Source: Candidatus Woesebacteria bacterium (GTDB taxonomy: Bacteria; Patescibacteriota; Microgenomatia; UBA1400; UBA12108). Taken from it: 64,000 nucleotides of DNA. The stretch spans positions 2,530 to 66,529 of the forward strand of contig JAGOVG010000005.1 in the NCBI GenBank assembly GCA_018060845.1. The letters run 5' to 3'. The position numbers and the translations under genes are program-made. Shown piece by piece: positions 21,606 to 22,589 of this stretch (position 1 is the stretch's first letter; every line of letters starts with the position of its first letter). The notes under the pieces are model-generated. The model was given only the letters and a program-made list of their open reading frames with translations, did not search any database and was not told where the DNA came from.

Positions 21606-22589
21606 ATGACTATGATCATCTTTTTTGGCTCCGATCGGTTTAGCGCAGTAGTACTTGGTGAATTGATTAAGCAAAATCATGCCCCAAAATTAGTCGTAAC
21701 CGACCCACCAAAACCTGCCCGCAATGCTTCGCATAGCGATGCAGGCGGGCCCAAAGTTAAAAAGGGTGTAATAGTACCCAACCAGGTTGAAAATTTGGCA
21801 GTTACGCAAAGTATAAATGTAGCTTATTATCCATCAAAAAGCGAAAGTCCGAACAATTTACTAGAACTCATCGCTAACCACTCAAGCCAAGGTGTTATAA
21901 CTGGCCTCTCTGCCTCTTTCCCCCATCTCTTCCCTCCCTCCATTATCAACGCGTTTGGTGGATCATTATATAACTTGCACCCCTCCCTCCTTCCCCAGTA
22001 CAGGAACGTTGCCCCCGGACCCTACGCTATTGCGACGGGTGATAAAGTAACCGGGATCTCGCTCTTCCCAATTGGAATCGGCATCGATAATGGTCAGTTG
22101 GTCGGCCAACAAAAGGAACTCATTCTCCCTACTGACACCACCTCCACCCTACTTACCCGACTCTTTACTATCGGTACCGAGCTATTTATCAAGTACCTAG
22201 ATGAGCCACACAATCCAAATCTTACAAATGATATCCCAGTTATGAGCTCTTCCGAACTTATCTTTACTCGCAAATTAACTAGGGAATCTGGTTTTATCGA
22301 GTGGGATATTGTCCAAAAATTGATTAACAACAAGGCTATTACAAAAGACGAAATTAGCAATCCATTAATCAAGCTCCGCCTCACCAACCACCCAGAGCGA
22401 ACAGAGAGCATCCTCACAGACCTAATCCGTGCACTAGATACCTACGAGCGAGTCTGGACGGTAGCAAAGTCAAAAAAAGGCGAACTCCAACTTACTCTAT
22501 CCCTTTCACCAAGTGGCGAAATCATGGTCCTAATCCCAGGCAAGCCAAAACCGATCTCTTACTCACAATTTTTGTCCAATTACCAATAG
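21606..22589 (+). CDS. fmt: Methionyl-tRNA formyltransferase
   Basis: N-terminal formyltransferase fold (IIFFGSDRFS..., NLHPSLLPQYRN). C-terminal Fmt domain. Confidence 0.85.
   Translation: MTMIIFFGSDRFSAVVLGELIKQNHAPKLVVTDPPKPARNASHSDAGGPKVKKGVIVPNQVENLAVTQSINVAYYPSKSESPNNLLELIANHSSQGVITGLSASFPHLFPPSIINAFGGSLYNLHPSLLPQYRNVAPGPYAIATGDKVTGISLFPIGIGIDNGQLVGQQKELILPTDTTSTLLTRLFTIGTELFIKYLDEPHNPNLTNDIPVMSSSELIFTRKLTRESGFIEWDIVQKLINNKAITKDEISNPLIKLRLTNHPERTESILTDLIRALDTYERVWTVAKSKKGELQLTLSLSPSGEIMVLIPGKPKPISYSQFLSNYQ
21714..21749. repeat. Family R2 small hairpin repeat, copy A (cctgcccgcaatgcttcgcatagcgatgcaggcggg). It lies in-frame inside fmt and encodes ARNASHSDAGG, which looks like an 8-aa insertion relative to canonical Fmt.
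   Basis: Sequence identity with the copies at 52023 and 62528. Confidence 0.5.

Follow-up and report, generated by a model that had tools for sequence, protein, structure and literature searches.

Rickettsia palindromic elements (RPEs) are approximately 100-150 bp long, fall into ten families, are restricted to Rickettsia, and lie in frame within housekeeping genes (Ogata et al. 2000 Science 290:347, via PMC10969869). Here we analyze a much shorter repeat, R2, found in a stretch of 64,000 nt from Candidatus Woesebacteria, a member of the Patescibacteria or candidate phyla radiation (CPR). This whole stretch is called the window, and all coordinates refer to it. An earlier note on the window had listed three copies of R2 and had compared the one inside fmt with RPEs. 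The likeness holds for the behaviour of the element but not for family membership, as R2 measures 36 nt against approximately 100-150 nt and occurs in other phyla. In our judgement R2 is probably a family of mobile DNA elements that are very small, GC-rich, and quasi-palindromic; it is RPE-like but much smaller and is spread across phyla.

Filled sites of R2 in the window and empty sites in relatives

The three copies of the earlier note are all present, and all lie on the + strand. The anchored pattern CTGCCCGCA-N15-30-TGCAGGCGG has exactly three matches in the window, all on the + strand, against an expectation of 0.00 from 100 dinucleotide-preserving shuffles, and a covariance model built from 19 R2 variants and run without filters over the 64 kb returned the same three copies only (copy A 65.6, copy C 61.0, and copy B 42.1 bits). 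Copy A (21714..21749, + strand, 36 nt, subtype A11/T16/T21/A26) occupies codons 37-48 of the fmt gene and lies, as had been proposed, in frame with its coding sequence (frame 0 of the open reading frame (ORF) 21606-22589), where it reads PARNASHSDAGG. Copy B (52023..52060, + strand, 38 nt) is intergenic, belongs to subtype G11...C, and has a 5-bp stem ATAGC/GCTAT. Copy C (62528..62563, + strand, 36 nt, subtype A11/A16/T21/T26) has A as its last base and extends past position 62562, where the earlier note had let it end; the G-C variant that had been assigned to copy C is found in copy B, and copies A and C have A...T.

The gene carrying copy A (21606..22589, + strand) encodes a 327-aa protein that resembles methionyl-tRNA formyltransferase (Fmt), with a Pfam Formyl_trans_N match (E=1.4e-18) and with Fmt structures (4iqf, 1fmt/2fmt) as its best matches in the PDB. 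Since its score for the NCBIfam model fmt (TIGR00460) is 106 bits and falls under the equivalog cut-off of 201.5 bits, we regard it as a putative divergent (CPR) form of Fmt, and we infer its function from these matches. The protein is identical to one from a Candidatus Woesebacteria MAG (metagenome-assembled genome). In relatives the fmt gene is located close to def.

Among 60 aligned Fmt orthologs the 12 residues encoded by copy A are found in six only (P0001-P0004, P0019, and, in decayed form, P0007). The remaining orthologs read ...TDxPK^PKGKKG..., and more than 20 of the empty ones are at 63-74% identity. At the nucleotide level the filled alleles read CCA AAA [36 nt] CCC AAA GG and the empty alleles CCA AAA CCC AAA GG, the empty site being CCAAAA^CCCAAAGG in L124, L125, and L127. 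The difference is exactly 36 nt, with no target-site duplication and with a 2-nt CC ambiguity in the placement of the boundary. Extra residues are present only where the 36-nt motif is present, which agrees with the earlier reading of copy A as a palindromic element inserted in frame. In the AlphaFold model of the host Fmt (mean predicted local distance difference test (pLDDT) 90.3, predicted template modelling score (pTM) 0.89) the insert comprises residues 37-48 and overlaps the lowest-confidence segment, residues 41-51, which is the only one with pLDDT below 50. Ortholog alignment and structure prediction, two of the checks that the earlier note had named, both come out in its favour. Copy A is an insertion at a codon boundary in a flexible Fmt loop between strand 2 and the next strand; it keeps the reading frame and appears, in the annotation as in the model, as 12 additional residues that are predicted to be disordered. 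Alignment to solved Fmt places the insertion site at ...PDR^PxGRKK.... Published studies of the E. coli enzyme reportedly describe this part as a flexible loop, specific to Fmt, by which the acceptor arm of the initiator tRNA is contacted.

The presumed contact with initiator tRNA and the similarity of the peptides encoded by different copies (PARNASHSDAGG and related) are what could be expected if the insert were a native protein feature, either an ancestral Fmt loop or a selected peptide, with the nucleotide likeness as a secondary effect. The empty orthologs and the unrelated hosts refute this explanation, to which we give next to no credence. More than 20 orthologs lack exactly the 12 residues, synonymous positions are invariant, changes of subtype keep the base pairs and alter residues non-conservatively (SHSD to THSV), and the same 36 nt are found in intergenic DNA, in other frames, and in approximately 50 unrelated proteins.

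A gene for a 719-aa TrwB/VirD4-like coupling protein is located near fmt in several Woesebacteria-like genomes (L122-L127) and in the window (24268-26427, - strand). It has the domains DUF8128, TrwB_AAD_bind, and TraG-D_C and is part of a CPR type IV secretion or competence-like machinery.

Copy B is situated 22 nt past the stop codon of a gene for a Trans_reg_C winged-helix regulator (50966..52000, + strand). In the relative L264, which carries an 89%-identical ortholog, the site is empty and reads TACTTATCCACA^TTCCCCCATTTA; the window has exactly 38 nt extra, and identity in the flanks amounts to 92% upstream and 98% downstream. Judged by this comparison, copy B is a recent gain or loss. The TTATCCA repeat flanking copy B is already present in the empty site of L264 and is therefore not a target duplication. 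Approximately 40 nt downstream of copy B there is a second GC-rich imperfect palindrome, GCGCCCCTAACGAAGCCATAGGCGGAGTGGGGTCC (52096-52135), which is also present in L264 and L265; its retention in a relative without copy B shows that it is independent of R2.

Copy C is the relic of an in-frame insertion rather than simply intergenic. Ortholog comparison ties it to a PEGA/PD40 gene (61108..62520, + strand). In the closest ortholog, L263, the empty site reads ...ATCATCACC^CGGATCCAG... (KIIT^RIQFSEGTIPNLYTIKLK followed by the stop codon) with the junction ATCACC^CGGATCCAG, and the window reads ATCACC[36 nt]CGCATCCAG...TAA, so that copy C was originally placed in frame between ...IT and RIQFSEG... 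of the gene product. The original C-terminal coding tail is left as a relic in frame with copy C (62564..62620, + strand, RIQFSEGTIPNLYTIKLK and stop codon); it matches the L263 tail at 55/57 nt, and at the protein level it does not differ from the tails of P0121-P0123. The tail that is now in frame in the gene (62464..62520, + strand, RIGFSEGTVPNLYTIKLK and stop codon) is free of the element and matches the L263 tail at 38/57 nt and the relic at 39/57 nt. The difference between 55/57 and 38/57 leads us to consider copy C an old in-frame insertion, bypassed by a later tail duplicate: a diverged, element-free copy of the last 19 codons, stop included, has apparently been placed upstream of it. 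This tail doubling (62464-62620) looks like a rescue of the gene from the insertion by an element-free tail from a diverged source. Compared with L263 the PEGA gene has mosaic identity, 74-94% per 100 nt. A target-site duplication is absent at all three filled/empty sites, i.e. fmt, the PEGA gene compared with L263, and copy B compared with L264.

Fold and spread of the family

For the analysis of the fold we used 29 distinct 36-mers from scans that left the inner 16 nt unconstrained. Pair 11-21 is AU in 15 of these, UA in six, GC in four, and other in four, and pair 16-26 is AU in ten, UA in ten, GC in three, GU in two, and other in four, which gives three Watson-Crick types at each pair. The covariation score is 0.370 compared with 0.142 +/- 0.025 in shuffles; none of 500 shuffles reached 0.370, and slid controls gave at most 0.10. 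The supported hairpins, 11-14/18-21 and 16-19/23-26, are converted into each other by reverse complementation (position i becomes 37-i), and since both of them use G18 and C19 they cannot coexist on one strand. In copy A they correspond to hairpin H2 (ATGC-TTC-GCAT, 21724..21734, + strand, pair 11-21 at 21724/21734) and to its overlapping dyad image H1 (TCGC-ATA-GCGA, 21729..21739, + strand, pair 16-26 at 21729/21739). The covarying 7-bp stem gcaRtgc/gcaYagc of the earlier note is replaced by these two pairs, each closing a 4-bp hairpin, and the positions it had given as variable NN(N) do vary, but they form a covarying stem themselves (TC/GA in copy A, AC/GT in copy C, and ATA/TAT in copy B). 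The symmetric register of minimum free energy (11-16 with 21-26) was rejected, as its covariation is no better than in shuffles; its inner pairs 12-25, 13-24, 14-23, and 15-22 are nearly always pairable.

The general architecture is CCTGCCCGCA-N-YGCT-[variable hairpin]-TGCAGGCGGG, with a modal length of 36 nt (12 aa) and a range of 32-52 nt. In copy A the 5' arm CCTGCCCGCA (21714..21723, + strand) pairs with TGCAGGCGGG at 21740-21749, including one T.G pair and one C.A mismatch. The outer arms are conserved in sequence and do not covary: they are exactly CCTGCCCGCA/TGCAGGCGGG in 93 of the 121 metagenomic copies listed, and the others have uncompensated point changes. The T.G pair and the C.A mismatch give the element a polarity. 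Conservation of this kind suggests that the arms are recognised in a sequence-specific manner. The predicted folds have energies of -18 to -25 kcal/mol and z-scores of -2.2 to -4.5. Inside the Dus gene (ORF 52494-53585, - strand) a perfect palindrome of 18 nt, CCTGCCTGCGCAGGCAGG (53281-53298), resembles two R2 outer arms joined without the centre.

With two covarying hairpins related by a dyad, each DNA strand can fold alike, and this points to a fold at the DNA level on both strands. Such a fold suits a cruciform or an enzyme acting on single strands, whereas an RNA made from one strand needs one hairpin only. The shape shared by the strands would be a 10-bp outer stem that has a 5-nt bulge on its 5' side, together with a hairpin of 4 bp closing a loop of 3 nt. 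Taken together, the two covarying hairpins, the invariant asymmetric arms, and the lack of target duplication point to recognition of single-stranded or cruciform DNA. R2 would be recognised by a sequence- and structure-specific enzyme acting in trans, and its movement would follow a “peel-and-paste” route or a nuclease plus repair.

A number of known identities were weighed and rejected. In the window and in 15 loci no Rfam family passed its gathering threshold, and no variant of R2 reached the threshold of any family. The COG2908 RNA (RF02939) is similar to R2 in the UCGCAUAGCGAUG hairpin and the GCC...GGC closing stem and differs by an extra hairpin; it scored 10.8 bits (E=2.6) compared with a gathering threshold of 58.7 bits. 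Copies B and C were not called as intrinsic terminators, and their tails, TTCCCCCA and ACGCATCC, have no T-run; on the opposite strand a T-rich run follows many CPR copies, although this is not general. A likeness to CRISPR repeats, attC, dif, or the oriT-nic site was weighed and set aside; the copies are neither regularly spaced nor arranged in an array. The nic region of RP4 may match the 8-nt CCTGCCCG.

The wider pattern search, the third check named in the earlier note, returned hundreds of further copies, most of the intragenic ones being in frame in unrelated proteins, and the family is thus far larger than the three copies of that note. A scan of one genome per species matched at least 120 loci. 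Among the matches listed, approximately half of 120 loci are chance matches in GC-rich genomes, and approximately 60 are genuine and share the inner motif, which the search had left unconstrained. The hosts within the Patescibacteria belong to many classes, with Nomura-, Sacchari-, Davies-, Moran-, and Portnoybacteria, Paceibacterota, and Microgenomates among them, and further hosts are metagenome-assembled genomes (MAGs) of Verrucomicrobiota, Kiritimatiellia, and Lentisphaerae; some low-GC host MAGs are labelled Gammaproteobacteria or Bdellovibrionales, which are unverified labels. A 36-mer identical to copy A is present at no fewer than six loci in different phyla. A metagenome scan anchored on the inner 22-mer also gave at least 120 loci. 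In viral contigs 15 stretches match the pattern, three of them chance-like, and one contig of 30 kb has four copies; the pattern was not found in collections of cultured phages and plasmids. The occurrence of a near-identical 36-mer across phyla and viral contigs argues for horizontal spread or a conserved recognition machinery. The literature searched gave no match to the R2 sequence, to its peptide, or to a link between CPR and such repeats, although a prior description may exist in subscription-only papers.

All sources are metagenome assemblies, and a pattern with 18 specified bases is expected to give hundreds of chance matches genome-wide, in line with the chance half of the genome scan. 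These two points speak for chance likeness or for an artefact of sequencing or assembly (an adaptor, for example, or a chimeric insert), an explanation that we nevertheless consider refuted and virtually impossible. The expectation for the window is 0, the inner motif is common to the genuine copies and covaries, and these copies come from many independent studies and assemblers. Moreover, reading frames are kept, and an orthologous copy (L126) decays by point mutation.

The behaviour of R2 in genes is clear from the low-GC loci, where 81 of 118 copies lie inside ORFs. Of the 81 intragenic copies 70 are in sense frame 0, three are in other sense frames, and eight are antisense. Approximately 50 unrelated proteins serve as hosts, including the Lys-, Trp-, Arg-, and Val/Ile-tRNA synthetases, PheRS-beta, the ribosomal proteins S9, S11, and S1, the initiation factors IF-1 and IF-2, SMC, enolase, ribonucleotide reductase, TypA, GatB, trigger factor, RecJ, UvrC, ATP synthase gamma, the CCA-adding enzyme, and the C-terminal domain of another Fmt. 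In a genome scan without length bias all 15 ORF copies were 33, 36, or 39 nt long, and 11 of the 23 non-ORF copies were not a multiple of three. As the ORF copies are multiples of three and stop-free, their sequences imply that they would be translated by read-through.

Frame 0 (PARNASHSDAGG) is the most hydrophilic of the stop-free sense frames, with a grand average of hydropathy (GRAVY) of -1.11. The sole other hydrophilic frame is antisense frame 2 (RLHRYAKHCGQ, GRAVY -1.49), and this is the frame used by genuine antisense insertions in UvrC and a Mur ligase; a ferredoxin-like protein has an antisense in-frame copy too. Lys is found at residue -1 in 31 of 65 copies, and the flanks are rich in Lys and Glu. 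The intergenic copies have a weak orientation bias, with a ratio of 22:13 when judged by the closest 3' gene end and of 6:4 where the neighbouring genes are co-directional. Many of them follow a stop codon at a distance of 3-50 nt, and divergent promoter regions contain none. The local GC skew at non-ORF copies was positive in 22 cases and negative in 16, so that no clear bias is seen with this crude proxy for replication direction; moreover, the element is pseudo-symmetric. It would appear that insertion is not strongly oriented, in which case the dominance of frame 0 would reflect selection on the encoded peptide. Selection would keep intragenic copies that are multiples of three, stop-free, and hydrophilic, mainly in sense frame 0 and rarely in antisense frame 2, and the copies kept would be those in Lys/Glu-rich surface segments. 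In the N-terminal loop of SMC two lineages have different subtypes at slightly different positions, which indicates independent insertions into a tolerant loop.

Mobility, rival explanations, and a candidate enzyme

Gain or loss of R2 concerns the exact element and involves no target-site duplication, and copies insert into each other as well as into unrelated genes. In L033 the apex of a long-form copy holds a short-form copy in reverse orientation, in L045 a reverse copy lies between positions 26 and 27 of another copy, and in L176 two copies stand in tandem. The two 30-nt flanks have a direct repeat of at least 8 nt in common in 12.3% of 171 copies, compared with 1.9% at random positions in the same loci. 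Since the repeat at copy B existed before the insertion, we take this enrichment to be context and not duplication, and insertion seems to favour locally repetitive, low-complexity DNA rather than to create duplications. A guide-like link of positions 11 and 16 to the flanking bases was considered and rejected, as the copies that are not of the A type are too few and GC content confounds the comparison.

A small ORF encoding an 81-aa GIY-YIG nuclease (62685..62930, + strand, Pfam GIY-YIG E=2.1e-15) begins 122 nt downstream of copy C and forms part of a tRNA-Arg locus that has been rearranged; L263 has an intact single tRNA and no such ORF. A profile search of 1.88 Mb of fetched loci found 14 small GIY-YIG ORFs, seven of which are at most 400 nt from R2 compared with 9.6% expected, a binomial estimate of approximately 1e-4 from a test that was chosen post hoc. 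In L148 and L033 (tRNA-Gln) a 5' tRNA fragment with R2 in the D-arm is followed by the GIY-YIG ORF and an intact tRNA, and in L015 (tRNA-Val, a Lentisphaerae MAG) the order is fragment with R2, intact tRNA, and GIY-YIG ORF. Other GIY-YIG ORFs are bracketed by hairpin-forming repeats of different kinds: L224 and L200 show inverted repeats, and the window shows the 41-nt direct repeat D9. These arrangements would suit a structure-specific nuclease that acts on such hairpins, and the GIY-YIG protein is a candidate trans-acting partner of R2, as a lead only.

The rearranged tRNA-Arg(CCU) locus of the window (62627-63105) consists of a 5' tRNA fragment, a 22-nt GC palindrome CCAGCTGCTCGCGAGCGGCTGG, the GIY-YIG ORF 62685-62930, an intact tRNA-Arg at 62939-63011, a 41-nt repeat of fragment and palindrome at 63018-63058, a palindrome TCCAGCTCTTCGCGAAGGGCTGGA, and the 3' end of a tRNA. 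Small GIY-YIG ORFs adjoin tRNA or tmRNA genes in several phyla (L148, L033, and L146 with tRNA-Gln, L015 with tRNA-Val, L203 and L239 with smpB-tmRNA). A relative of R2 that is a perfect palindrome (CCCGCCCGCAACGCT...AGCGATGCGGGCGGG) is present downstream of the GIY-YIG ORF in L203 and L239, with the tmRNA gene on its other side in L203.

Several observations weigh against a mobile element of this kind. Outside the element the filled Fmt genes have 65-73% nucleotide identity to the window gene, and 44-57% of 4-fold sites differ; in the genes whose copies have 0-1 changes the range is 44-49%. Within the element three lineages have 0-1 changes in 36 nt and none at the 12 third-codon positions, whereas the decayed copy in a fourth lineage (L126) has acquired five changes in 36 nt by point mutation. 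A dead selfish insertion is expected to decay in the way seen in L126, which leaves the intact Fmt copies unexplained; they would need nucleotide-level selection, gene conversion, or re-insertion. Furthermore, filled and empty alleles are intermingled on a neighbour-joining tree, a pattern that requires repeated precise loss, allele exchange, or re-insertion at the same site. With one subtype at one site in all Fmt copies, and given the weak target motif, a single origin is favoured over five independent hits. The flanks of the filled alleles are as diverged as those of the empty alleles, and no conversion tract is visible. As for the target motif, base -1 is A in 60% of the copies and the three empty sites have no common motif. 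The search for an enzyme gave no transposase and no enriched family among the ORFs of at least 100 aa beside 60 copies, which belong to generic housekeeping families with at most 5/60 loci per family, and Pfam annotation of viral contigs with several copies gave no transposase either. A long parent element, with ends more than 60 nt apart, was not found in 1.86 Mb of fetched loci, whole genomes not being part of this search. Finally, the GIY-YIG link may equally well be indirect, if rare dispensable DNA near tRNA genes gathers both features.

The conservation in place of the Fmt copies (0-1 changes in 36 nt against approximately 50% divergence at 4-fold sites) could also be accounted for if R2 were a structured RNA selected by the host, i.e. 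a cis-acting mRNA element such as a site for an RNA-binding protein, an RNase site, or a stabiliser, common to a translation/housekeeping regulon. The stable folds agree with this, as do the sense orientation of 86% (70/81) of the intragenic copies, the position of many intergenic copies shortly after a stop codon and of none in a divergent promoter region, and an orthologous site in S9 with two subtypes that differ in a compensatory pair (L029 compared with L252). Against a structured RNA, both of the dyad-related hairpins covary where one transcribed strand needs one, and the wobble-type exceptions favour neither strand. The antisense in-frame copies in UvrC, the Mur ligase, and the ferredoxin-like protein are genuine, the intergenic orientation is just 22:13 and 6:4, there is neither an Rfam match nor a T-tail, and the nested, tandem, and presence/absence copies still demand mobility. 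We consider this explanation rather improbable, though it is the strongest competitor of the mobile element that we favour.

The patchy distribution in Fmt, with one subtype at one site, also fits a spread of R2 as an uptake or recombination signal, by transformation and homologous allele replacement, with new sites arising rarely through template switching at the hairpin. The mosaic PEGA gene and the foreign-looking duplicated tail beside copy C are in line with such a process, and so is the enrichment of short direct repeats in the flanks. It would leave the exact de novo insertions into approximately 50 genes and the nested copies unexplained, and there is no conversion tract around the Fmt copy. 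To our knowledge, known DNA-uptake sequences arise by point mutation and not by insertion. We find it very improbable that this process explains R2.

Keeping to R2 as a mobile element, a more specific proposal can be made with considerable reservation. R2 could be an undescribed minimal class of mobile DNA, a 36-nt double hairpin that a small structure-specific nuclease would move in trans (with the GIY-YIG protein encoded beside copies at tRNA loci as the candidate), which crosses the boundaries between CPR episymbionts, the Planctomycetes-Verrucomicrobia-Chlamydiae (PVC) group, and their phages, and is kept intact in essential genes by selection or continual correction. If the mobilising enzyme is indeed a small GIY-YIG nuclease, it would represent a new transposition chemistry for bacteria. 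If the double-hairpin class is real, it would be a new route by which core proteins obtain 12-residue loops and a natural tracer of the DNA that ultra-small bacteria exchange with other members of their communities; we regard the proposal as possible, although the odds are against it.

Some further features of the window should be mentioned. The + strand has a uniformly negative GC skew over positions 1-64000 (-0.12 to -0.20 per 8-kb window) with genes on both strands, which is an unusually strong asymmetry. A separate family of 105-nt repeats, unrelated to R2, has four copies that are 73-100% identical (5567-5671, 11569-11673, 16628-16732, and 55988-56092), and a 44-nt direct repeat of 93% identity (58165-58208 and 59583-59626, 1.4 kb apart) brackets ORF 58184-59566.

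R2 compared with known systems

Streamlined CPR genomes of approximately 1 Mb are not expected to tolerate selfish DNA, yet R2 is found in their essential genes, and essential CPR proteins have been repeatedly remodelled by a mobile cassette of 12 codons. R2 affects alignments and phylogenies of marker genes, explains some of the “CPR-specific insertions”, and provides natural experiments on loop tolerance. The intact element in diverging orthologs poses the question of whether it is selfish, domesticated, or both.

Repetitive extragenic palindromes (REPs) and REPINs, mobilised in trans by REP-associated tyrosine transposases (RAYTs), resemble R2 as imperfect GC-rich palindromes of 20-40 nt in many copies, often at gene 3' ends, that are recognised as hairpins and give no target duplication. 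They differ in being extragenic and species-specific, in a 5' tetranucleotide of the GTAG type, and in flanking a RAYT (TnpA-REP, HUH Y1) gene, whereas R2 is mostly intragenic in CPR (81 of the 118 low-GC copies), starts with CCTG, and crosses phyla. A RAYT was not seen among the neighbouring ORFs in the 60 loci sampled. Both REP- and MITE-type repeats (a MITE being a miniature inverted-repeat transposable element) are normally species-specific, which makes the identity of R2 across phyla unusual.

The palindrome-associated transposable elements (PATEs) derived from IS200/IS605 have single-strand hairpin ends, make no target duplication, and are excised seamlessly, and excision of this kind would account for the precise empty sites of R2. 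Unlike R2, which has a weak preference for A at -1 and is far shorter, PATEs insert 3' of a fixed tetra- or pentanucleotide. They also have a lagging-strand bias, of which local GC skew, a crude proxy, gave no clear sign at the non-ORF copies of R2. TnpA was not found in the R2 loci sampled.

The GC clusters and “byp” elements of yeast mitochondria are likewise short GC-rich mobile palindromes in AT-rich genomes, coding regions included. The ribosome reportedly bypasses the byp elements, which are free to break the reading frame; within ORFs the copies of R2 keep the frame and are stop-free, and the hosts belong to a different domain of life.

Classical MITEs such as Correia, ERIC, and Nezha (PMC10969869) share with R2 the short length, the non-autonomous and dispersed nature, the terminal inverted repeats, and the occasional in-frame fusions. 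The 10-nt arms of R2, CCTGCCCGCA/TGCAGGCGGG, are complementary at 8/10 positions plus one T.G and thereby qualify as terminal inverted repeats. A MITE usually measures 50-500 bp, is flanked by target-site duplications, and can be traced to a parent insertion sequence, whereas R2 has no duplication at the three sites and no parent insertion sequence in the 1.86 Mb fetched.

Compared with RPEs, as these are portrayed in the summary cited at the outset, R2 is set apart by length and host, and a relationship in sequence is not expected: R2 has 36 nt (12 codons) against an RPE peptide of approximately 35-50 aa, and it is found in Patescibacteria, PVC MAGs, and viral contigs against a restriction to Rickettsia. 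The two overlapping dyad-related hairpins of R2 have no counterpart in that portrayal of RPEs. The two share the palindromic repeat, the in-frame location in unrelated genes, the extra peptide that is compatible with the fold of the host protein, and the presence of intergenic copies too, and the RPE family is functionally the known system closest to R2.

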